In this document: piece after piece, positions 895 to 7,879 of the stretch
Position numbering within the stretch: the stretch's first letter is position 1
Layout: the number at the start of each line of letters is the position of its first letter
Program-made: the position numbers and the translations under genes
Source: a virus
Lineage: Duplodnaviria > Heunggongvirae > Uroviricota > Caudoviricetes
Strand: one strand, 5' to 3'
Virus record (IMG/VR): IMGVR_UViG_2671180456_000014
Length of the DNA stretch: 7,879 bases
The notes under the pieces: generated by a model
Databases searched by the model: none
What the model saw: the letters and a program-made list of their open reading frames with translations, nothing else
What the model was told of the DNA's origin: nothing

Positions 895-1377
895 TTACAC
901 GCCATCAAGGATGTGGATGCGGTTGCTTGCGTATACATTCAGCATAAAGTTAGCGCAAAACAGTTTCCATGTATCAACGCCAGCGGTATACGTAATGTTT
1001 TTGCATTTAATCGCATTGTTGGCGATCCGCATCCCCTGCGATACTGCTTCATCGTCGGAAAATTTGAACGACGATTGAGTTTTAATCCAGACAGAAATCT
1101 GCGTAGCGAACTCAATCAGCTTGGACTGGCAGAATCGCCCGGAGCGCACCGGAAAGACGAACGTTCCGAATCCAGAATTTACCACATACGCTTTCTCAAA
1201 TACCCGCGAGTAACGACGATTGCCAATGATGTCGCGTGCAATAATGCATTTTTCTTGTGCTGACAGTTCTACCGTCTCATTGTCGCGCCATGCACCAAGT
1301 ACTCGTTTTTCAATGTCAGAGAACGTTACAGCGATATTGCCATGTGCGGGTGCGTTTACAGTAGCGATAAAATTCAT
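895..1377 (-). CDS. hypothetical protein, 160 aa (cassette gene A)
   Basis: ORF track 895-1377; ATG at 1377-1375 preceded by AAGGA with 7-nt spacer; own promoter motif and own terminator. No family recognised. Confidence 0.6.
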   Translation of the reverse strand: MNFIATVNAPAHGNIAVTFSDIEKRVLGAWRDNETVELSAQEKCIIARDIIGNRRYSRVFEKAYVVNSGFGTFVFPVRSGRFCQSKLIEFATQISVWIKTQSSFKFSDDEAVSQGMRIANNAIKCKNITYTAGVDTWKLFCANFMLNVYASNRIHILDGV

Positions 1378-1433
1378 GATTAATTCCTTATCGTAAATAA
1401 CAAATTGTTTTCTTGTTGGTGTTAATTATCGTT
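1378..1433 (-). promoter_or_regulatory. conserved cassette promoter and 5' leader (copy A)
   Basis: Sense strand: cGATAATtaacaccaacaagAAAACAATTTGTTatttacgatAAGGAattaatcATG. -10 GATAAT at 1425-1430; C/A-rich leader with palindromic core AACAAATTGTT (1399-1409); SD. Confidence 0.5.
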
Positions 1434-1552
1434 GTACGAATAAGGCGTCAAAGTGGAAAGTTGCGGTAGCCGGACGGGAACAGGTGGGTTTGTCGGTTGC
1501 CTGGAGGTAAGAGGTTGGTGTTTTTAGCCTGCGGGAAACAGGATGGTCATTT

Positions 1553-1576
1553 AAGGCCACCAGCATTGGTGGCCTT
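1553..1576 (-). terminator. stem-loop 5 nt after gene B stop (putative terminator or 3' stabiliser)
   Basis: AAGGCCACCA-gcat-TGGTGGCCTT 10-bp stem; no clean U-tract after it on the minus strand (uuaaaugacc). Contains the Chi octamer on the minus strand (CCACCAGC at 1557-1564). Confidence 0.4.
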
Positions 1577-1581
1577 ACTCT

Positions 1582-1863
1582 TTAGTGTAGCAGACCGATG
1601 TCGATGGTATCCCCTGAATCATCCACACGGATCATCAGCATGGCGAAGGCGTTTAGTGGATAGCTTGCGTGCCATTCAGGGAAGCGGTCATCTCGCATGA
1701 AGTCGGCAATGTCGTAAACGCAGCCCTCAAAGTGGAAGAATCGCGTGCTTACCTGCTCGTCATATTCCACATGATCCATTTCTTGCTGTTCTGTTTCCGG
1801 CAAGTCCAGCCATGATTCAAGGAATACATTTTGTGCTTTAGGGGTAATGGTGAAATCAGTCAT
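1582..1863 (-). CDS. small strongly acidic hypothetical protein, 93 aa (cassette gene B)
   Basis: Start chosen at ATG 1863-1861 (MTDFTITPK...) because GAGGA sits 7 nt upstream; the longer track ORF (to 1995) would run through the promoter motif. About 20 Asp/Glu versus 5 Lys/Arg by my count. Confidence 0.6.
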   Translation of the reverse strand: MTDFTITPKAQNVFLESWLDLPETEQQEMDHVEYDEQVSTRFFHFEGCVYDIADFMRDDRFPEWHASYPLNAFAMLMIRVDDSGDTIDIGLLH

Positions 1864-1917
1864 GAGCATATCCTCACTGCGTAAACATGTTGTTTTCTTG
1901 TTGGTGTAATTATCGCA
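1864..1917 (-). promoter_or_regulatory. conserved cassette promoter and 5' leader (copy B)
   Basis: Sense: TGcGATAATtacaccaacaagaaaacaACATGTTtacgcagtGAGGAtatgctcATG. Extended -10 (TG + GATAAT, 1909-1914 with TG at 1915-1916); palindromic AACATGTT core. Confidence 0.55.
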
Positions 1918-2010
1918 GTGTAGATAAGGCATAAAAGAAGTTAATACAGGCTGAATACACAAGAAAGGTTCTGGAAGTTGATAGCCAGGTTTCAAACTAA
2001 CCTTCGGTTA

Positions 2011-2047
2011 TTAAAAGTCATTTAAGACCACCAATGCTGGTGGCCTT
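2011..2047 (-). terminator. hairpin terminator after ORF C'
   Basis: AAGACCACCA-atgc-TGGTGGCCTT stem (2024-2047, one G-U pair in RNA), followed on the minus strand by AAAUGACUUUUAA. Same stem as 1553-1576 but with the 4-nt loop inverted. Contains Chi GCTGGTGG on the plus strand (2036-2043). Confidence 0.5.
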
Positions 2048-2052
2048 AATAA

Positions 2053-2196
2053 TTATCGCCCGATTACGCTAAGGATCTTTTCCTCAACTGATTTGTTGTT
2101 GCGACTAAACTGCCTTGCGTATCTGATGACAGAAGAGGCGTTTCGCTTTCTGACCATCTCGGCTCTCTCCTTCAGGCGTTTCTTGAAATCGCCCAT
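2053..2196 (-). CDS. small basic ORF, 47 aa (C'), translationally coupled to gene C
   Basis: MGDFKKRLKERAEMVRKRNASSVIRYARQFSRNNKSVEEKILSVIGR. ATG at 2196-2194 lies 2 nt after the TAA of gene C (TAAatATG); stop at 2053-2055, 5 nt before the conserved hairpin. Below the ORF-track length cutoff; called by hand. Confidence 0.3.
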   Translation of the reverse strand: MGDFKKRLKERAEMVRKRNASSVIRYARQFSRNNKSVEEKILSVIGR

Positions 2197-2198
2197 AT

Positions 2199-2573
2199 TT
2201 ACCACCAGGCGCAGAAGGTCAGTCTGTTATTGTGAAAGTCGTGGTTCTTAATCAGATCTTCCACAAGCTCTTTCAACTCCCCCACATCATGCCAGTAACC
2301 TTCATCGTACTCCTGACTGCCGAAGAAAAAACCTTCCCGGGTAGGCAAGTACTCTTCGCAATTACTTTCGTTTATGTGCATCAAATGAGCCTTCAGAAAA
2401 CAAATGTCATTCATCGTTAATTCTAAAAGCTCACAATTTTCGACTTCACCTACGTTGCGCTCCATCCACCCAACGAGCGCATTGAACTTACGGAAGTAAG
2501 CAACCTGCTTTCTGGATGCCTCGTTATTCAGATCGTTTTTAGGCTGTGTCTCGATATAGATATCAAGTCCCAT
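2199..2573 (-). CDS. acidic hypothetical protein, 124 aa (cassette gene C)
   Basis: Start chosen at ATG 2573-2571 (MGLDIYIE...) with AAGGAAA 5-8 nt upstream; alternative GTG start at 2615 gives the 138-aa track ORF. Confidence 0.55.
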   Translation of the reverse strand: MGLDIYIETQPKNDLNNEASRKQVAYFRKFNALVGWMERNVGEVENCELLELTMNDICFLKAHLMHINESNCEEYLPTREGFFFGSQEYDEGYWHDVGELKELVEDLIKNHDFHNNRLTFCAWW

Positions 2574-2650
2574 GATGGTTTCCTTATTAAGTTGCTTCAG
2601 TGAAATCATTTTCACAAATCAGATAAGGCAGAAAACAAATTGTTATCGGG
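2574..2650 (-). promoter_or_regulatory. upstream region of gene C with one copy of the palindromic core
   Basis: Sense: ccGATAACAATTTGTTTTCtgccttatctg... Core at 2631-2644. Arrangement differs from the other cassettes and the -10 is not clear. Confidence 0.3.
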
Positions 2651-2682
2651 CATAATAAAATGGCGCGGTTTACGCGCCATTT
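2648..2682 (-). terminator. Rho-independent terminator of gene D
   Basis: AAATGGCGCG-gttta-CGCGCCATTT 10-bp stem (2658-2682), followed on the minus strand by UAUUAUG; 8 nt after the gene D stop. Confidence 0.6.
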
Positions 2683-2690
2683 AAAGAGGA

Positions 2691-3086
2691 TTAAGCGAAT
2701 ACGCTTTCAGGGATTAAGGTGTCAGCAGGAATGCCGGAGGTAATGCGCAGACCATACTGGCCAATCCAGGCGGTGTTGGTATTCAGGTTGGAGGCGAATA
2801 CGGTGTTAACCATATTCATCATTGGTTCAAACACCTCTTCATCAACCTGGCGGAAGTAGTTCTCGATTTTCAGCAGCAGCGGGTCAGTTGCATCGAAAAT
2901 AGACTGGTATTGAGTCTCGTACTCGCCGCCGGAGGCATCACCTTTACGCACGATCGTACTGGCCTGGACTTCGGCGCCAGTTTCGGTGTTGTACGTAACA
3001 ACGGTGATTTTTGCCACATTCTTACCTTCGGCGGTTTCAGAGGCATAGTAAACATCAACTGTCAGTTTTTCGCGTTTAACGGTCAT
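2691..3086 (-). CDS. hypothetical protein, 131 aa (gene D)
   Basis: Start ATG 3086-3084 (MTVKREKLTVDVYY...) with GGAGAG SD; the track ORF extends 22 codons upstream across the promoter. Has its own sigma70-type promoter rather than the cassette motif. Confidence 0.6.
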   Translation of the reverse strand: MTVKREKLTVDVYYASETAEGKNVAKITVVTYNTETGAEVQASTIVRKGDASGGEYETQYQSIFDATDPLLLKIENYFRQVDEEVFEPMMNMVNTVFASNLNTNTAWIGQYGLRITSGIPADTLIPESVFA

Positions 3087-3110
3087 TTCACTCTCCGTAG
3101 TGTTTTGGTT

Positions 3111-3147
3111 ATTTTTATATTCTATGATCGTAAGTATGTACTTACAA
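3111..3147 (-). promoter_or_regulatory. sigma70-type promoter of gene D with overlapping inverted repeat
   Basis: Minus strand: -35 TTGTAA (3147-3142), 17-bp spacer, -10 TAGAAT (3124-3119). Inverted repeat GTAAGTA-tg-TACTTAC (3130-3145) overlaps -35 and spacer. Confidence 0.55.
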
Positions 3148-3150
3148 TAC

Positions 3151-3180
3151 AAAAAAAAGCCCCGTAAGGATGGCGGGGCT
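3151..3180 (-). terminator. Rho-independent terminator of gene E
   Basis: Minus strand: AGCCCCG-ccatcctta-CGGGGCT followed by UUUUUUUU (the A8 run at 3151-3158 on the plus strand). Confidence 0.7.
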
Positions 3181-3214
3181 GTCGTACGGTCGACTAATTA
3201 CCACTTGCACATTA

Positions 3215-3526
3215 TCAGGCTATTGCCATCACTGATGCTCTCTGAATTTCTTGCTGGGCCACGCGGTTAACTTCCATCAAAGCCAGTTCGAGCTGATGTT
3301 CCGGCCACATTCTTTGAAATGCCATCCAGCCTTTTCCACGCTGGCGACGAACATTCATTACATAACGAGTAAAGGTGTTTTTATCGAAAGACACCGCTGT
3401 TTCACGGAACAGACGAATAGAGGTTCCATTGGCAACGATGTCCAGCAAAGTTAATTGAGCAACCAGCGCAGGCTTCTCTTTTCTCTTCTGGTCTTTGTCC
3501 AGACCAAGAACCAATGATTTTTTCAT
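3215..3526 (-). CDS. small basic hypothetical protein, 103 aa (cassette gene E)
   Basis: Start ATG 3526-3524 (MKKSLVLGLDKDQKRKEK...) with GGAG 5 nt upstream; TGA stop at 3215-3217. Lys/Arg-rich N-terminus and RRQRGKG stretch. Confidence 0.6.
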   Translation of the reverse strand: MKKSLVLGLDKDQKRKEKPALVAQLTLLDIVANGTSIRLFRETAVSFDKNTFTRYVMNVRRQRGKGWMAFQRMWPEHQLELALMEVNRVAQQEIQRASVMAIA

Positions 3527-3573
3527 TACAACTCCGTAAACAACTTGTTTTCTCAATGGCGTAAATAATACCA
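3527..3573 (-). promoter_or_regulatory. conserved cassette promoter and 5' leader (copy E)
   Basis: Sense: TGgTATTATttacgccattgagAAAACAAGTTGTTTacGGAGttgtaaATG. Extended -10 (TG + TATTAT, 3565-3570); palindromic core 3538-3554. Confidence 0.5.
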
Positions 3574-3639
3574 GTAAGAAAACGGCTACAAAGCATATTG
3601 ATCAGGCGCATGAGCGATATGCAGGTTCTTCCCTGCGGC

Positions 3640-3670
3640 TATAGAGAAATTAAGCCAGCATTGCTGGCTT
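3640..3670 (-). terminator. hairpin terminator of gene F
   Basis: AAGCCAGC-att-GCTGGCTT stem (3652-3670) followed on the minus strand by AAUUUCUCUAUAG; same ctatagaga flank as the gene A terminator. Confidence 0.5.
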
Positions 3671-3679
3671 TGGTTGGGG

Positions 3680-4009
3680 TTACTCGAATACTTCAAGAAA
3701 CTCCTGAACGTCCCAATGCTGGACGAGGTGAAGATAGACCTTAGAAATAACGTCATTCTCGCTATCGCATGTGAAGTAGTACTTCTGGCTGCGGTTGTAT
3801 GTGTCCACACAAAATTCGCTCATATCCATAAAGTCAGCATCTTCACCCATGTCGCAAATCATCAAAGCAGGTGCGTCATCACGAGTCATCAGCTCAAGCA
3901 CCCACCGCGAATTGATCAGAGTGGAAGACCAACCTTCTAACTCATAAAACTGATCAAACTCTTTTTGAGTTAATTTCTTAATTTGGTTGATGTCGATATT
4001 TGCAAACAT
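3680..4009 (-). CDS. small strongly acidic hypothetical protein, 109 aa (cassette gene F)
   Basis: Start ATG 4009-4007 (MFANIDINQ...) with AAGGA 7 nt upstream; the longer track start (4030) falls inside the leader motif. About 22 Asp/Glu versus 8 Lys/Arg by my count. Confidence 0.6.
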   Translation of the reverse strand: MFANIDINQIKKLTQKEFDQFYELEGWSSTLINSRWVLELMTRDDAPALMICDMGEDADFMDMSEFCVDTYNRSQKYYFTCDSENDVISKVYLHLVQHWDVQEFLEVFE

Positions 4010-4056
4010 AAAGCAATCCTTAAACAACATGTTTTCTTGATGGTGTTATTATCGCA
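4010..4056 (-). promoter_or_regulatory. conserved cassette promoter and 5' leader (copy F)
   Basis: Sense: TGcGATAATaacaccatcaagaaaACATGTtgtttAAGGAttgctttATG. Extended -10 GATAAT at 4048-4053 with TG at 4054-4055. Confidence 0.55.
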
Positions 4057-4372
4057 ATAACGCACAGGCGAAAAAGAGTTTTATTCCGGTGAATGTGGTT
4101 TTGGCAGTGAGTTTTCAGGTTCAGTACCGAGTACACTTTTTACATTATTCTGATTTAGTGGCCGAAGGTGGCTGGTGGGCAGAATAATCATCTCCCCGAA
4201 AACCTACTGAAATCGATTGTGACCCGTTGGCTGTCTGGCACAATTACGCTGTAGCTGGGCATTCAGAGGGAATCCAGCGGTAAGTAAGTTCGCCTGCACG
4301 TGAGCGCCTCTCTTCTTCCCGCACATTACAGGTGGGCAGCCGCAACTCTCCCTCACGCTATACCGGTACGCC

Positions 4373-4501
4373 GCCGTTCCTGAACCGGCATCGAGCCTTT
4401 TCCCGAAATCCACACAGGCAACTCGACCGTTTCCCTGAAAACCTCCAGCCGTTCCCCGAAGGCAACCCAGCCGTTTCTGTAGCGGGATGCAGCCTTTTCC
4501 C
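4373..4501. repeat. iteron-like array: 6 direct repeats at about 22-bp period
   Basis: Plus-strand GCCKTTYCC cores begin at 4373, 4395, 4426(7), 4448, 4470, 4492 (spacings 22, 31, 22, 22, 22). Minus-strand reading is GGRAAMGGC. Confidence 0.6.
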
Positions 4502-4559
4502 TGTATGGACCGAAGGCTGACCGTAGGGGTGTTACGGGGGATAAAATCAGGAGTTGAAT

Positions 4560-4590
4560 AAATACGAAAAAGGAGGCGACACCCCTCCTT
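4560..4590 (-). terminator. Rho-independent terminator, no ORF upstream
   Basis: Minus strand: AAGGAGG-ggugucg-CCUCCUU followed by UUUCGUAUUUAUU. Lies between the orphan promoter motif and the iteron array. Confidence 0.5.
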
Positions 4591-4623
4591 CCCTCCCCAC
4601 TTATACATACCTGTCTTGTTCGC

Positions 4624-4657
4624 TATACATGTTGTGTTTTCTTCGTGTTTTATCTGT
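4624..4657 (-). promoter_or_regulatory. orphan (ORF-less) copy of the cassette promoter and leader motif
   Basis: Sense: agATAAAAcacgaagaaaacacaACATGTatagcg aligns with cGATAATtaacaccaacaagaaaacaaTTTGTT; -10 is degenerate (GATAAA). No credible ORF before the terminator at 4560-4590. Confidence 0.35.
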
Positions 4658-4699
4658 TTCAACCTCTCTATAGGCGTTAATGCTCACTCCTTCCAGAAC

Positions 4700-5460
4700 G
4701 TTCTATACGGCGACTATTTCTGTTGGTGAATTGGGTGTGTTGTTTTCTCTGTCGGTGTATGTGGTTTCGTTAGTTTTGCGGTGGTTCTTCTATGGGGTGT
4801 TCTCGTCGTTTTGGTGATTGTTCTTCTCCGTGTATGGAGTAATGGCAGGTGGGCGATTGCTTTCGTTATTGTGTTTGAGTTGTTTGTCTGGAGTGTGTGA
4901 AAGGCTTTTGTAGTTATTCGTGTGTTGGGTAATGGCGTTTCCCGTGATTGTTATGTTTCGTGTCTTTTGGGATTGAGAGAAGCCTTGCGGTTACAGGCTT
5001 CGTTGGGGTTTCAGTGATTCTGGTGTTTCTTCGCTGTTTGGGGAATGGCGTATCGTGGGTATTGCGCGTATGAATGTTTTCGGATTGCCTGTGAAAGTTA
5101 GGTTGGTTGTCCGGTAGCCTGGGAAGAAGAGGTGGGTCTTTTCGGTAGCCTGCCATAAAGAGGTTGGTTGTTTTGGGTAATGGCATATGTGTTATTTAGT
5201 TGTTTTGTTATGCCTGAAAATAAGTTGTTTATATGGTTGTGTAACGCAACGGGAACGATTTTGAGCGTGTGTTTTTGTTGGTAGTGTGTTGGGTCGTCTG
5301 TGGTGAAAATTGGACGCTGTGGCGCTGTCTGCTGCGTAGAGTTACGGGTATAAGCAGTGATGTGTGAAAACGTCAATTTTTTAGACCAAATCGGGTGAAA
5401 GCGTTGATGTTTCGTTGATCTGTTATTCAGTTGTTTTCTTGATTGTATAAACAACTATAA
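4700..5460. repeat. strongly G/T-skewed non-coding region of degenerate intergenic-module repeats
   Basis: Plus strand is about 80% G+T in sampled stretches. Recurrent GGTAATGGC units near 4842, 4931, 5044, 5180; 5113-5185 aligns with the region upstream of promoter A (1464-1540); degenerate promoter-motif copies at 5274-5290 and 5431-5445. No credible ORF on either strand. Confidence 0.55.
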
Positions 5461-5518
5461 CTTATTGATATTTAAGGATGTGATTGCGGGTATGGAAGGG
5501 GAGTAGTGGCGATCAACG

Positions 5519-5538
5519 GATTCTTATAGAAAAGAATC
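5519..5538. other. inverted repeat downstream of gene H
   Basis: GATTCTT-atagaa-AAGAATC 7-bp stem; no U-tract on the minus strand, so not a canonical terminator. Confidence 0.3.
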
Positions 5539-5564
5539 AAATTGTGACCGCCATTATCAATGTT

Positions 5565-6299
5565 TTACTTAGTTTTGTTTAGCAGAGAGAGAATTTCATC
5601 ACTAATTTCACTCGCCTGTTTGATAGCCAATGCAGTTACCTCTTCTATGGTTGGTGACTGTTGATGCTCATATTTGGTTTCGGTTATGACAATGTGTTCT
5701 TCACCAGAATTTGCGCATAGTGCCGCATTGACGATAAGGTTTGAGTAAGAATTTAGCAGAGCACTGTTGATGAACGCTTTCACGGTATTACTGTCTGCAC
5801 CAAATACATCTTTTCTGACCGCTTCAGCCTCACAGCGAACCCCTGCAGCAACATCGTGAAGAACATGTATGGCCTTGGAGCTTGTTTGTTCACAGTACTC
5901 AATCATTATTGTCGAATTGTTCTGTTCAACAAACGATCTGATGCCTGACGATTTACCCATAGCATCGAAGGCAGCGTGACCCGCACTAGTAGAGATATCT
6001 TCATAGAGTTCTTCATCGCTATCTTTTTCTTCAGGTGTCGAGGTGTCTTCATCGTCGTAATAGATATTGCCTTTAATCAGTGTCTTGGACACTTGATATA
6101 AACAATAAGAAACGAGATTTAAGCATTGGATTTTAGCTGTATTGTCCTTTGTCGCCTCGCTCTTCAGTTCTTTCGCTTCTTCAGTAAGGCTGTTGATAAG
6201 ACTTTGTATTTTTTCCAACGCGTTAGGTGCACACTCCGCGTTGTCCATAAAGAATTTATAACCAGTTCCAGGGATTTCTAAACTTTTCAACTTTTTCAT
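5565..6299 (-). CDS. hypothetical protein, 244 aa (gene H), AT-richer than its surroundings
   Basis: ORF track 5565-6299; ATG 6299-6297 with AGGA about 11 nt upstream; 45 nt after gene G with no promoter motif of its own, so probably co-transcribed. Acidic patch YYDDEDTSTPEEKDSDEELYED. No Walker, HTH or transmembrane signature seen by eye. Confidence 0.6.
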   Translation of the reverse strand: MKKLKSLEIPGTGYKFFMDNAECAPNALEKIQSLINSLTEEAKELKSEATKDNTAKIQCLNLVSYCLYQVSKTLIKGNIYYDDEDTSTPEEKDSDEELYEDISTSAGHAAFDAMGKSSGIRSFVEQNNSTIMIEYCEQTSSKAIHVLHDVAAGVRCEAEAVRKDVFGADSNTVKAFINSALLNSYSNLIVNAALCANSGEEHIVITETKYEHQQSPTIEEVTALAIKQASEISDEILSLLNKTK

Positions 6300-6344: not shown

Positions 6345-6644
6345 TTACCAGTTCCAGCACTCAAGCCCTTCAACGACCGGTGCACCACAATCAAAATGTA
6401 CAGAGTCAAAGCCTACATCAAGTACTTTCTGAATGTTAGCAATCGCGCCTTCGGATATACCATATCGACGCAAGTCGTCTTTCCAGACATCATCCTGTAA
6501 CCCGGCGTGGACAATACAACCGCCGTCAATTTGCGAAACCCAATCCAGCTCATTGCTTGCGATCATGAATCGACGAGCATCTTCCTCTGATGTATGAGAT
6601 GAACTGATCAATGCCACCTGGTAGGCTTGGGTAATGTTCAACAT
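6345..6644 (-). CDS. small acidic hypothetical protein, 99 aa (cassette gene G)
   Basis: Start ATG 6644-6642 (MLNITQAYQ...) with GGAG 8 nt upstream; the track uses an upstream GTG at 6653. TAA stop at 6345-6347. Confidence 0.6.
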   Translation of the reverse strand: MLNITQAYQVALISSSHTSEEDARRFMIASNELDWVSQIDGGCIVHAGLQDDVWKDDLRRYGISEGAIANIQKVLDVGFDSVHFDCGAPVVEGLECWNW

Positions 6645-6722
6645 TTCAACCACTCCGAAACAATTTGTTTTCTTATGTGGCTTATTATCTCAATTAACAA
6701 AAGGCAGAAAACAAATTGTTTT
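6645..6722 (-). promoter_or_regulatory. conserved cassette promoter with two palindromic cores (copy G)
   Basis: Sense: AAAACAATTTGTTTTctgccttttgttaatTGaGATAATaagccacataagAAAACAAATTGTTTcGGAGtggttgaaATG. Extended -10 GATAAT at 6684-6689; palindromic cores at 6658-6671 and 6709-6722 flank it. Confidence 0.55.
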
Positions 6723-6754
6723 AGGGTATGCGTAAATCAGAAGGGATTGTGTCT

Positions 6755-6805: not shown

Positions 6806-7879
6806 TTACTTAACCTGGTGGCCTGGTTTAGCACCAGCATCCGGGCTTAACAGGAAGATATCTTTCCCGCCGGGGCCAGCAGCCATCACCATGCCTTCGG
6901 AGATACCGAAGCGCATTTTACGCGGTGCCAGGTTAGCCACCATAATGGTGTGACGACCAATCAGTGCCTGTGGATCTGGATAAGCGGAACGGATGCCTGA
7001 GAAGACATTACGCTTTTCACCGCCGAGATCCAGCGTCAGGCGTAGCAGTTTGTCAGAACCTTCTACAAACTCTGCGTTTTCAATCAGCGCCACGCGCAGG
7101 TCAACTTTGGCGAAGTCGTNNNNNNNNNNNNNNNNNNNNNNNNNNNNNNNNNNNNNNNNNNNNNNNNNNNNNNNNNNNNNNNNNNNNNNNNNNNNNNNNN
7201 NNNNNNNNNNNNNNNNNNNGTCAGGCGTAGCAGTTTGTCAGAACCTTCTACAAACTCTGCGTTTTCAATCAGCGCCACGCGCAGGTCAACTTTGGCGAAG
7301 TCGTCAAAGGTGATAGTTTCCTGAATCGGGTCGTCAGCCAGTGGGCCAGTTACCGGTGCGGCTGTGGCTTTCACTTCTTCTTTGGATGCTTCCACCAGTG
7401 CTTCAACCTGCTTCATATCGATGCGGTTATACAGTGCCTTGAACGGATTCACTTTATGGCCCAGCAACGGTTGCTGGATGCCATCCCAGGTTAGTTCTGT
7501 ATTGAGGAATGCCTCTGCACGTTCAGTCAGTTTTGGCAGTACCGGTTTCAGGTACGTCATCAGCACGCGGAACAGATTAATGCCCATAGAGCAAATCGCC
7601 TGCAGATCGGCATCGCGTCCTTCCTGCTTCGCCACCACCCACGGAGCCTGTTCATCGACATAGCGGTTAGCCAGGTCAGCCAATGCCATGATTTCACGGA
7701 TAGCTTTACCAAATTCGCGGCTTTCCCATGCTTCGCCAATCACTTCAGCGGCATCAGTAAAGGTTTTGTACAGTTGCGGGTCAGCCAGTTCGCCTGCCAG
7801 CACGCCGTCAAAACGCTTGTTGATAAAGCCTGCATTACGAGAGGCCAGGTTAACCACTTTGTTCACGATATCGGCATTC
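6806..7879 (-). CDS. metG: methionyl-tRNA synthetase, 3' portion (runs off window; interrupted by assembly gap)
   Basis: Minus-strand translation gives ...[105 protein letters not shown], which I recognise as the enterobacterial MetG C-terminus (tRNA-binding domain). TAA stop at 6806-6808. The apparent frame change is fully explained by the 100-N gap plus 85-bp duplication (185 bp, not a multiple of 3). Confidence 0.9.
7035..7304. repeat. 85-bp exact duplication flanking the gap (7035-7119 = 7220-7304), assembly artefact
   Basis: Identical sequence gtcaggcgtagcagtttgtcagaacc...ggcgaagtcgt on both sides of the N run; collapsing one copy and the gap restores a continuous metG reading frame. 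Confidence 0.9.
7120..7219. other. scaffold gap (100 N)
   Basis: Run of exactly 100 n characters. Confidence 0.97.

Follow-up and report, generated by a model that had tools for sequence, protein, structure and literature searches.

A 7,879-nucleotide stretch of a Caudoviricetes genome (IMG/VR record IMGVR_UViG_2671180456_000014), which we refer to as the window, encodes several small acidic proteins and raises the question of whether these serve the element as DNA mimics or other anti-defence proteins. A preliminary description had made this proposal for genes B, C, F, and G, and we analyzed their composition, promoters, families, and genomic neighborhoods (Table 1).

Table 1. Genes and regulatory features of the window
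Feature	Position	Strand	Description
Gene A	895..1377	-	160 aa, basic, pI 9.2, PHROG 1641
Promoter/operator module of A	1399..1453	-	-35-like TTGACG, GATAAT, then AAGAAAACAATTTGTTA
Terminator after B	1551..1577	.	Palindromic hairpin
Gene B	1582..1863	-	93 aa, D+E 20, K+R 5, pI 4.13, PHROG 1845
Promoter/operator module of B	1875..1950	-	TGCGATAAT, then AAGAAAACAACATGTTT
Terminator after C and small ORF	2022..2049	.	Hairpin, repeat partner of 1551-1577
Possible 50-aa ORF	2053..2205	-	Basic, overlaps C stop codon; terminator follows
Gene C	2199..2573	-	124 aa, D+E 23, K+R 11, pI 4.69
Palindrome copy upstream of C	2608..2653	-	Inverted setting (TAACAATTTGTTTTCTGCCTTAT)
Gene D	2691..3086	-	131 aa, moderately acidic (18 D/E, 10 K/R), PHROG 2473
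Gene E	3215..3526	-	103 aa, basic, pI 10.5, PHROG 5125
Promoter/operator module of E	3539..3593	-	
Terminator after F	3652..3670	-	Hairpin, sequence related to the other two
Gene F	3680..4009	-	109 aa, D+E 22, K+R 8, pI 4.21
Promoter/operator module of F	4014..4089	-	
Gene H	5565..6299	-	244 aa, acidic (39 D/E, 23 K/R), directly downstream of G
Gene G	6345..6644	-	99 aa, D+E 16, K+R 6, pI 4.32
Promoter/operator module of G	6650..6725	-	Second, inverted palindrome copy at 6706-6721

Four unrelated acidic proteins in a phage-plasmid accessory region

The element is an SSU5/pHCM2-type phage-plasmid with 98.5% identity to Escherichia phage Cyrano, and the window is best explained as a small-gene accessory region of such an element. 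Genes A, B, D, E, F, and G were found again at 29 to 72% amino-acid identity in a divergent SSU5-like element, demonstrating that they are real genes; the set is kept there as a fast-diverging group in a different order (E, F, D, x, B, x, G, A), and A is conserved together with B across SSU5-type elements. The start codons of B and F are each preceded by a Shine-Dalgarno sequence and agree with the RefSeq calls. Since an alternative ATG for F at 4030 lies inside a palindrome, the 109-aa start is favored. It is uncertain whether the 50-aa ORF is a real gene: it is annotated in Cyrano (CYRAN_109) and not in RefSeq, and it is missing from Klebsiella relatives in which C directly adjoins B. H is annotated with coiled-coil segments in Cyrano.

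Exact counts bore out the strong acidity of B and F and the net acidity of C and G that had been estimated by hand. B, C, and F lie within positions 1582 to 4009, where the preliminary description had placed the acidic proteins, and G lies outside this span. The composition expected of DNA mimics, a high D/E content and a low pI that are kept in homologues, was found, with pI values of 4.1 to 4.7 and acidity persisting at 25 to 36% identity. Acidity alone is weak evidence, however, because among the 123 proteins annotated in Cyrano, which is nearly identical to the element, 60% are net acidic. With the 5th percentile of net charge per residue at -0.10 for these 123 proteins, the values for B (-0.16), F (-0.13), G (-0.10), and C (-0.097) place them among the approximately 11 most acidic, and all four are encoded inside 11 consecutive genes (hypergeometric P = 0.0085 in a post hoc test).

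The small acidic proteins B, C, F, and G are not related to one another; between B, C, and F, hhalign did not detect any paralogy. When all ten ORFs were scanned against Pfam, NCBIfam, PHROGs, and PADLOC, the only matches were DUF5983 for G and unnamed PHROGs, with PADLOC defence-system models giving insignificant matches only (E of at least 0.011), and an Rfam scan of the window returned no RNA family. Thus, the earlier statement that none of the four belongs to a nameable family holds for B, C, and F and fails for G. The relatives that had been suggested did not emerge either: by sequence, B, C, F, and G matched neither the Ocr family nor solved Ocr structures (Pfam, PHROG functions, and PDB sequences), neither ArdA (PF07275) nor ArdB/KlcA (PF03230, Antirestrict) nor the ArdA and KlcA structures (Pfam and PDB sequences), and no characterized Acr among solved structures or in Pfam. 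Single-sequence and profile searches of PDB sequences yielded nothing credible and no solved anti-defence protein.

Single-gene cassettes share an operator-like palindrome with genes across the replicon

Upstream of A, B, E, F, and G we found a conserved module of an extended -10 and then AAGAAAACAANTTGTTT, 11 to 21 nt before the start codon, in agreement with the individual promoters noted previously. The extended -10 reads TGnGATAAT, with TATTAT in E and no TG in A; D has its own sigma-70-like promoter without the palindrome described below. These modules were found via repeats and not via a generic sigma-70 scan, which missed them (5 matches versus 12.9 expected), and in divergent relatives they belong to the small number of non-coding stretches that can still be recognized at the DNA level (77 to 89% identity). 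Most cassettes are single-gene units with their own promoter, and a hairpin terminator follows several of them. The near-identical repeats at 1551-1577 and 2022-2049 thus bracket the B cassette.

Most of the extended -10 promoters are followed by a 13-bp palindrome (6+1+6), AAACAANTTGTTT, which occurs 18 times in 108 kb versus 0.4 expected, at or just after the promoters of many operons across the replicon. Given its position before many genes, we infer that one global regulator probably controls the cassette genes. Because the palindromic site lies in the 5' untranslated region, it may also have a role at the RNA level. Terminase, parA, helicase, cobT, and RNR genes have the palindrome in front of them as well, which makes co-regulation uninformative about defence in particular; with terminase, helicase, and RNR genes among those preceded, we rejected the palindrome as the mark of an anti-defence regulon.

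An operator shared with housekeeping phage genes, together with the acidity of most of the element's proteins, is consistent with B, C, F, and G being ordinary phage-plasmid accessory proteins without a role against host immunity, such as regulators, replication or partition helpers, lysogenic-conversion factors, or acidic partners neutralizing basic A, E, and the 50-aa ORF. This explanation deserves serious consideration and is on balance rather doubtful. The conservation of A, B, D, E, F, and G as a set in SSU5-type elements suits a core lifestyle function, the PHROG families are all without assigned function, and acidic and basic genes alternate (F-E, C-small ORF, and B-A). However, both a terminator and a new promoter lie between B and A, as also between F and E. 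Synteny of the acidic-basic pairs is not kept in the divergent relative, which led us to reject fixed neighbor pairs. Furthermore, the fast divergence of A, D, E, F, and G (29 to 40% identity) is more typical of conflict genes, and the distribution of the C family, described below, likewise counts against ordinary accessory functions.

The family, fold, and neighborhoods of C

Homologues of C share the motifs MGLDIYF, YFRKFN, LPTxEGFFFGSxEYDxxY, and a C-terminal WW. The N-terminal MGLD is invariant across 48 homologues, which supports the C start codon and suggests a functional N terminus. Residues D4, K29, N31, G81, F83, and F84 and an aromatic loop are invariant, and the invariant or near-invariant positions together comprise D4, F27, R28, K29, N31, P77, T78, G81, F82-F84, G85, Y89, and Y93. 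These conserved positions are aromatic, basic, or glycine, not surface acidic, and only nine positions of the family are at least 60% acidic. The family has a median net charge per residue of -0.083, and 83% of its members keep a net negative charge. The model of C is confident and shows an alpha/beta fold with few and weak matches, to the N-terminal domain of DapD (the best), YfbM, and DMP12; the fold search returned no match to Ocr, ArdA, or KlcA/ArdB.

The C family spreads over unrelated phages, integrative and conjugative elements (ICEs), and Gram-positive plasmids, and some of its members lie beside anti-restriction genes. In conjugative elements, C homologues were found one small gene before ArdA (PF07275; L005-L008) or 12 nt upstream of an Antirestrict (PF03230) gene that is followed by MPTase-PolyVal (L009-L011). 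Other homologues lie in plasmid arrays of small unidirectional genes, including one near RadC and one after ParB, or in NrdD/dUTPase/ligase/helicase clusters of large phages. A named anti-restriction gene was present in 2 of the 10 examined neighborhoods of distant C homologues. The occurrence of the family beside known anti-restriction genes makes an anti-defence role for C plausible, and the family would appear to travel with ArdA and KlcA-type genes in conjugative elements and, in large phages, with genes of early DNA metabolism.

The conserved residues of C raise the alternative that it binds a ligand or is a small enzyme, such as a sponge for nucleotide immune signals or a DNA-metabolism accessory factor, with a pocket built from D4, K29, N31, and the aromatic GFFFG/Y/Y loop. 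We consider this unlikely. The invariant residue set and extreme N terminus, the few acidic positions, an enzyme domain as the best fold match, and the DNA-metabolism neighborhoods in large phages argue for it, whereas C matches no enzyme or sponge family by sequence, carries no nameable catalytic motif, and belongs to a predominantly negative family. In addition, a position next to ArdA and KlcA-type genes would be compatible with every kind of anti-defence mechanism, including mimicry.

The narrow families of B and F and the DUF5983 protein G

B is a core gene of SSU5-type phage-plasmids and belongs to a narrow family; in public records it is misnamed "ABC transporter." A remote homologue, gp03 of Pectobacterium phage MA11 (32% identity, hhalign probability 93.8%), keeps the acidity of B (19 D/E versus 5 K/R). 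The F family is very small, with 9 representatives among 1.84 billion proteins, and an exhaustive HMMER search found only three distant relatives. Homologues of F at 25 to 36% identity keep a net charge of -0.126 to -0.133 per residue. A multicystatin hit to F (E 1e-4, with no matched stretch) was dismissed as compositional.

It is distinctly unlikely that B, F, or both are genuine DNA mimics like Ocr, ArdA, or Ugi, in which a carboxylate array would imitate the phosphate backbone and block the DNA-binding site of a host enzyme (candidates being type I R-M, BREX PglX, RecBCD, HU, or UDG): their D/E contents (21.5% and 20%), pI, and size lie in the range of small mimics such as Ugi and AcrIIA4, their acidity is preserved in homologues, and each has its own promoter on a mobile element, but their D/E fractions are below those of Ocr and ArdA, neither has a sequence relation to any solved mimic, the AF2 model of B is unusable (pLDDT 53.5), and B is highly conserved from end to end, with many hydrophobic and aromatic residues among the conserved ones, when mimics usually conserve the charge pattern instead.

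By its profile match, G is a DUF5983 protein: residues 12-99 align to positions 3-90 of the 90-position C-terminal domain profile (PF19419) at 42.8 bits (gathering cut-off, 27), and this coverage supports the G start codon. In E. coli genomes, DUF5983 proteins are encoded downstream of the gene for the CbtA toxin (PMC10790755), and one preprint gives the family a glyoxalase-like fold with possible small-molecule binding. K-12 yeeW, which is truncated and positioned downstream of cbtA, gave no alignment with G.

A tentative model of host interference

We tentatively favor, with confidence somewhat short of even, a model where B, C, F, and G are co-regulated host-interference proteins encoded in cassettes, with C the best-supported anti-defence candidate. 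In this model, they would act as anti-defence or establishment factors that bind host proteins rather than catalyze reactions. Composition, gene reality, promoter architecture, family distributions, and the neighborhoods and fold of C were established directly; the timing of expression, the protein targets, and any anti-defence activity we infer. DNA mimicry by any of the four is unproven. The mobile-element setting, individual promoters, acidity kept in distant homologues, C neighborhoods, and the presence of DMP12 among the C fold matches support the anti-defence reading of the preliminary description, while the lack of any match to Ocr, ArdA, or KlcA, the non-acidic invariant residues of C, the DUF5983 assignment of G, and the genome-wide operator weigh against it. 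In plasmid leading regions, anti-defence genes cluster with uncharacterized small genes (PMC11541004). SSU5-group elements yielded few known anti-defence genes in a DefenseFinder screen (bioRxiv 10.1101/2025.09.12.675607), so others may await discovery there.

A further-reaching version, which we regard as improbable, is that C founds a widespread undescribed anti-defence family of DMP12-like mimics or immune-signal sponges, with B and F as lineage-specific inhibitors in shuffling cassettes under one palindromic operator. The family so defined (MGLDIYF...YFRKFN...GFFFGS...WW) occurs in phages, ICEs, and plasmids of Gram-negative and Gram-positive bacteria. If this reading is true, SSU5-type phage-plasmids own a counterpart of the anti-defence island of plasmid leading regions, and the C family is a broadly distributed inhibitor already adjoining ArdA and KlcA in conjugative elements.

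Phage-plasmids of the SSU5/pHCM2 type, some with resistance genes, are frequent in E. coli, Shigella, Salmonella Typhi, and Klebsiella. Inhibitors of host immunity encoded in these cassettes would help explain the establishment of such elements in new hosts, and the cassette architecture with its genome-wide operator offers a handle for finding similar genes downstream of the motif. Should none of the proteins confer an anti-defence phenotype, what is left is a set of ordinary acidic phage proteins without a known function.

Comparison with known systems

Like ArdA, KlcA/ArdB, and Ocr, the proteins B, C, F, and G are small, acidic, and encoded on a mobile element, and genes for ArdA and PF03230 proteins adjoin C homologues, but none of the four matches these inhibitors by sequence, nor does the model of C by fold. 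The Neisseria DNA mimic DMP12, which binds HU (PDB 3w1o; PMC3643605), is a weak fold match to C at 14% identity (Foldseek E 0.45, TM approximately 0.42) with no sequence-profile relation; unlike DMP12, C is encoded on mobile elements and conserves aromatic and basic residues. E. coli YfbM (DUF1877; PDB 1ryl) is chromosomal and 167 aa long, in contrast to C, and the two are not significantly related (hhalign probability 0.2%; Pfam DUF1877 matched 0 of 48 C family members); a literature search on YfbM/DUF1877 and WP accessions returned nothing useful. Compared with other DUF5983 proteins, G consists of the C-terminal domain alone, without a cbtA/cbeA neighbor.

In organization, the window resembles the PeSL (promoter-early stem-loop) cassettes of the hyperplastic regions of T4-type phages (PMC2839356, PMC4122927), where small genes of unknown function likewise lie between conserved terminator and promoter motifs and gene order varies between relatives. 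Here, a terminator stem-loop and an early promoter surround small ORFs in the same way, an architectural analogy rather than sequence membership, and L017-L019 have the genes in a different order but retain the motifs, at which recombination may have taken place. PeSL cassettes belong to another phage group and have another motif sequence, and in contrast to them the promoters here feature an operator-like palindrome used genome-wide. Dispersed palindromic operators serve global repressors in other elements, as do the KorB OB sites of IncP plasmids and the C1 operators of P1. The likeness to these systems lies in a palindrome that recurs at approximately 18 sites, at or just after the promoters of many operons.

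Host element and composition of the acidic proteins

The first 7 kb of the window was 98.5% identical to Escherichia phage Cyrano, and the window was 97 to 98% identical to ~160 E. coli plasmids (roughly 105 to 120 kb). Because related DNA was also present in Salmonella phage SSU5 and Klebsiella phage-plasmids, we assigned the element to the SSU5/pHCM2-type phage-plasmids. In the closest plasmid, the region is flanked by a ParB/helicase block on one side and a plasmid-borne metG-apbC pair on the other. The minus strand carries every gene of interest; in the direction of transcription, the order is G, H, a 1.5-kb stretch free of genes, F, E, D, C, a possible ORF of 50 aa, B, and A. Homologues of A, B, D, E, F, and G with conserved lengths and 29 to 72% amino acid identity recur in a divergent 108-kb SSU5-like element, indicating that these genes are real. 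For C, an MGLD N terminus invariant in 48 homologues fixes the start; for G, a Pfam match spanning residues 12 to 99 supports it; and for F, support comes from the position of the alternative ATG at 4030, which lies within the conserved operator.

The preliminary description had counted D/E against K/R by hand, finding B and F strongly acidic and C and G net acidic, and these counts were correct (see table); the span of 1582 to 4009 that it gave for the four proteins covers B, C, and F and leaves G outside. Acidity as such is common in the element, since 60% of the 123 annotated Cyrano proteins are net acidic (5th percentile of net charge per residue, -0.10). B, F, G, and C are 4 of the ~11 most acidic of these proteins and all lie within 11 consecutive genes, a clustering with a post hoc hypergeometric P of 0.0085. 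The acidic-protein observation is accurate and modestly non-random.

A second small acidic pair, CYRAN_59 and CYRAN_58, lies elsewhere in the element (Cyrano 58633 to 59380; L003:8633-9380 in our extracted stretch). CYRAN_59 (91 aa; 20 D/E versus 5 K/R) tops the acidity ranking of proteins as annotated in Cyrano, and B at its 93-aa start nearly equals it (-0.161). A palindrome copy ends ~25 nt upstream of the start codon of CYRAN_58 (138 aa; 26/13).

Coordinates of the acidic genes and associated regulatory features
Feature	Position	Strand	Length (aa)	D+E/K+R	pI	Setting
B	1582-1863	minus	93	20/5	4.13	
C	2199-2573	minus	124	23/11	4.69	
F	3680-4009	minus	109	22/8	4.21	
G	6345-6644	minus	99	16/6	4.32	
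Palindrome-bearing module	1399-1453					5' of A
Palindrome-bearing module	1875-1950					5' of B
Palindrome-bearing module	3539-3593					5' of E
Palindrome-bearing module	4014-4089					5' of F
Palindrome-bearing module	6650-6725					5' of G
Palindrome site	2608-2653					5' of C, inverted
Hairpin terminator	1551-1577					after B
Hairpin terminator	2022-2049					after C and small ORF
Hairpin terminator	3652-3670					after F

The possible 50-aa basic ORF (2053 to 2205, minus strand; GTG start) overlaps the C stop codon by 7 nt, and a terminator follows it directly. The ORF is named CYRAN_109 in the Cyrano annotation, is unannotated in RefSeq, and is missing from Klebsiella relatives, where the C-to-B gap is 5 nt. 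At the other end of the region, metG sequence is present at 6806 to 7866 (minus strand), and full metG lies beside apbC in the closest plasmid (L001:14790-18081), where both are annotated. metG and apbC/mrp presumably also adjoin on the E. coli chromosome, and the phage-plasmid pair looks like a captured host segment. Part of the query was matched in every one of 5,426 E. coli genomes, mostly at 90 to 95% identity, presumably through chromosomal metG. The run of 100 Ns inside metG (7120 to 7219), with a duplicated sequence (an 18-residue peptide) encoded on both sides, is a scaffold-gap artefact that lengthens the window by ~200 bases relative to the corresponding stretch of the plasmid.

Families of B, F, and G

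Proteins B, C, and F matched nothing in Pfam or NCBIfam and showed no relationship to one another, whereas G is a DUF5983 protein (Pfam; 42.8 bits versus a cutoff of 27), so that the earlier statement that none belongs to a nameable family holds for the first three only. All four were assigned to PHROGs of unknown function, and none matched defense-system models or, in single-sequence and profile searches, PDB sequences. Across these databases, membership in a known anti-restriction, anti-CRISPR, or mimic family found no support.

SSU5-type elements in Escherichia, Klebsiella, Salmonella, Cronobacter, and Yersinia share B as a core gene, and its full-length members are mostly 77 to 99% identical. 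The only distant homologue, gp03 of Pectobacterium phage MA11 (93.8% probability in hhalign), matches B in acidity (94 aa; 19 D/E versus 5 K/R). The AlphaFold2 model of B failed (pLDDT, 53.5). The name “ABC transporter,” widespread for the 93-aa B in NCBI and UniRef, is a propagated misannotation, as the protein contains no ABC-transporter domain. F is nearly an orphan: an HMMER search run exhaustively over 1.84 billion representatives returned a family of nine proteins, three of them distant (25 to 36% identity). All are ~110 aa with a net charge of -0.126 to -0.133 per residue, and the one that we looked up, P0125, sits in the same region of the divergent SSU5-like element. For G, one survey found DUF5983 in E. 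coli always downstream of the CbtA toxin (PMC10790755), and one preprint assigns the family to a glyoxalase-like fold that may hold a site for a small molecule.

Fold, conservation, and neighborhoods of protein C

The C family comprises 79 clusters, with identity down to 29%, and strongly conserves the motifs MGLDIYF, YFRKFN, LPTxEGFFFGSxEYDxxY, and a C-terminal WW. The AlphaFold2 model was confident (pLDDT, 93.2; pTM, 0.84) and comprised four strands and four helices. Its fold matches, which were weak, were the DapD N-terminal domain (3r5a and 2rij; scores of 7.4 and 7.2), E. coli YfbM (1ryl; 6.3), and the Neisseria DNA mimic DMP12 (3w1o; 5.8); against a viral structure library, it matched uncharacterized proteins of jumbo and other phages (E values down to 4.5e-11). 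YfbM and C both have an MG-x-x-x-YF N terminus, but their profile comparison was not significant. Residues D4, K29, N31, G81, F83, and F84 are invariant and F27, R28, P77, T78, Y89, and Y93 nearly so, and only nine family positions are at least 60% acidic. This conservation pattern points to a binding pocket at least as much as to a charged surface.

The neighborhoods are more telling evidence on C than the fold matches. In E. coli, a single small gene separates a homologue (37% identity) from a downstream ArdA gene, beyond which come LPD29 and DUF1281 genes. A metagenomic homologue (48% identity) belongs to a TraG/TraI element, where a gap of 12 nt separates its end from a downstream PF03230 Antirestrict gene, and an MPTase-PolyVal gene comes next. 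Other homologues sit in long runs of small genes of unknown function that all point the same way, on plasmid-like contigs and on plasmids of Gram-positive bacteria; one of them follows ParB and another is near RadC. Such small-gene arrays with C homologues beside ArdA and KlcA fit the anti-defense islands described for plasmids (PMC11541004). Three further homologues lie in 60- to 165-kb phage contigs amid genes for NrdD or RNR, dUTPase, ligase, a Dda-like helicase, and sigma factors. One of these contigs (~140 kb, large-phage-like) carries two C-family genes in tandem, 26% and 41% identical to C (L015:5202-6390 and L016:3124-4312). The pair is separated by one small gene and directly precedes the Dda-like helicase gene.

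Promoter-gene cassettes and a dispersed palindrome

Repeat analysis identified a 55- to 76-nt module 5' of A, B, E, F, and G, which aligned as GCCTT...TGcGATAAT-ACACCA-c-AAGAAAACAA-N-TTGTTT-(11 to 21 nt with a Shine-Dalgarno sequence)-ATG. We read the module as a predicted extended -10 promoter with a 13-bp palindrome downstream of it, placed about where the transcript is expected to start. An inverted palindrome is also present upstream of the promoter in C and G, and the promoter of D is a plain sigma-70-like one that lacks the palindrome. The near-identical, palindromic hairpins after B and after C and the small ORF flank the B cassette on both sides. Because modules precede A, B, E, F, and G, D has its own promoter, and hairpins follow B, C with the small ORF, and F, the proposal of individual promoters proved correct: most genes are single-gene promoter-gene cassettes, several ending in a hairpin terminator.

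The palindrome AAACAANTTGTTT usually takes the form AAGAAAACAANTTGTTT, lying just after an extended -10 element and 11 to 40 nt 5' of a start codon. When no more than one mismatch was allowed, the 108-kb phage contained 18 copies versus 0.4 in shuffles. It also precedes the small terminase gene, parA, a helicase gene, cobT, the RNR beta gene, a TciA-like gene, and others, and it is not special to the acidic genes. A global regulator probably acts at this site, either as an operator or as a 5'-UTR site; alternatively, it looks like a 5'-UTR element belonging to the phage-plasmid as a whole.

A full-length gene for a FljA-like protein lies ~1.3 kb past the left end of the window in the closest plasmid (L001:6218-6742, plus strand; Pfam Flag1_repress, E value of 1.5e-84). 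Salmonella FljA is a phase-1 flagellin repressor that may act on the fliC mRNA leader. The FljA-like gene could serve in lysogenic conversion, or its product could be a candidate for binding the 5'-UTR/operator motif that the genes share. Other candidate regulators encoded by the element are the HTH repressor CYRAN_45, CYRAN_114, and the ParB homologues.

Other noncoding features

The 750 nt at 4700 to 5450 (minus strand) are 72% A+C on the transcribed strand (A, 0.40; C, 0.32; G, 0.12; T, 0.16) and contain no credible ORF. The stretch is bounded by a promoter-like module near 5431 to 5454 and a terminator at 4593 to 4567. Window positions 4426 to 5560 are 67% identical to a stretch of the divergent SSU5-like element (L020:1330-2502), most of which is without a called gene. 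No Rfam match was found for the A/C-rich stretch, which is a candidate noncoding RNA of ~850 nt. Two arrays of four CCGTTYCY octamers (770 to 880 and 4374 to 4478, plus strand), several exactly 22 nt apart, flank the A-F gene block and together hold 8 of the 14 copies in the 108-kb phage. They look like iteron or centromere-type protein-binding arrays.

A possible role in host interference

The preliminary description had proposed B, C, F, and G as DNA mimics or anti-defense proteins. Their description as small, separately promoted mobile-element proteins with conserved acidity is supported; membership in a known anti-defense or mimic family is not. The proposal is a reasonable lead, which is strengthened for C, left open for B and F, and weakened for G because G belongs to a named family whose sole literature hint is a ligand-binding fold. 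For C, guilt by association and a weak resemblance of the predicted model to the structure of a DNA mimic may point in this direction, and DNA mimicry is a hypothesis for all four proteins alike.

We tentatively propose, with slightly less than even confidence, that B, C, F, and G are host-interference proteins (anti-defense or establishment). Their expression would come from the cassettes under the control of the global operator of the element, and they would work by binding proteins of the host; C is the strongest candidate. The main rival, a set of ordinary accessory proteins with no link to immunity, is somewhat less likely. Fixed acidic-basic pairs in which A, E, or the small ORF is the basic partner are improbable: the divergent relative does not keep the synteny of these pairs, and B is separated from A, as F is from E, by a terminator and a new promoter.

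Comparison with known systems

The dispersed 6+1+6 palindrome of the element resembles the operators of KorB or P1 C1, which are dispersed palindromic sites. In relatives of the element, the promoter and terminator motifs retain 77 to 89% DNA identity, the proteins there have diverged to 29 to 40%, and gene order differs. Identical 22-nt hairpins (14 to 35 and 285 to 306) flank a plus-strand gene at 49 to 279. The closest architectural analogue of the cassettes is the PeSL system of T4-type phages, in which conserved promoter-plus-stem-loop motifs flank small unknown genes in hyperplastic regions and mediate their shuffling (PMC2839356 and PMC4122927). Because paired hairpins flank both B and the gene at 49 to 279 and gene order differs in the divergent SSU5-like element (L017 to L019), cassettes may be shuffled at conserved terminator and promoter motifs, as with the PeSLs of T4-type phages.
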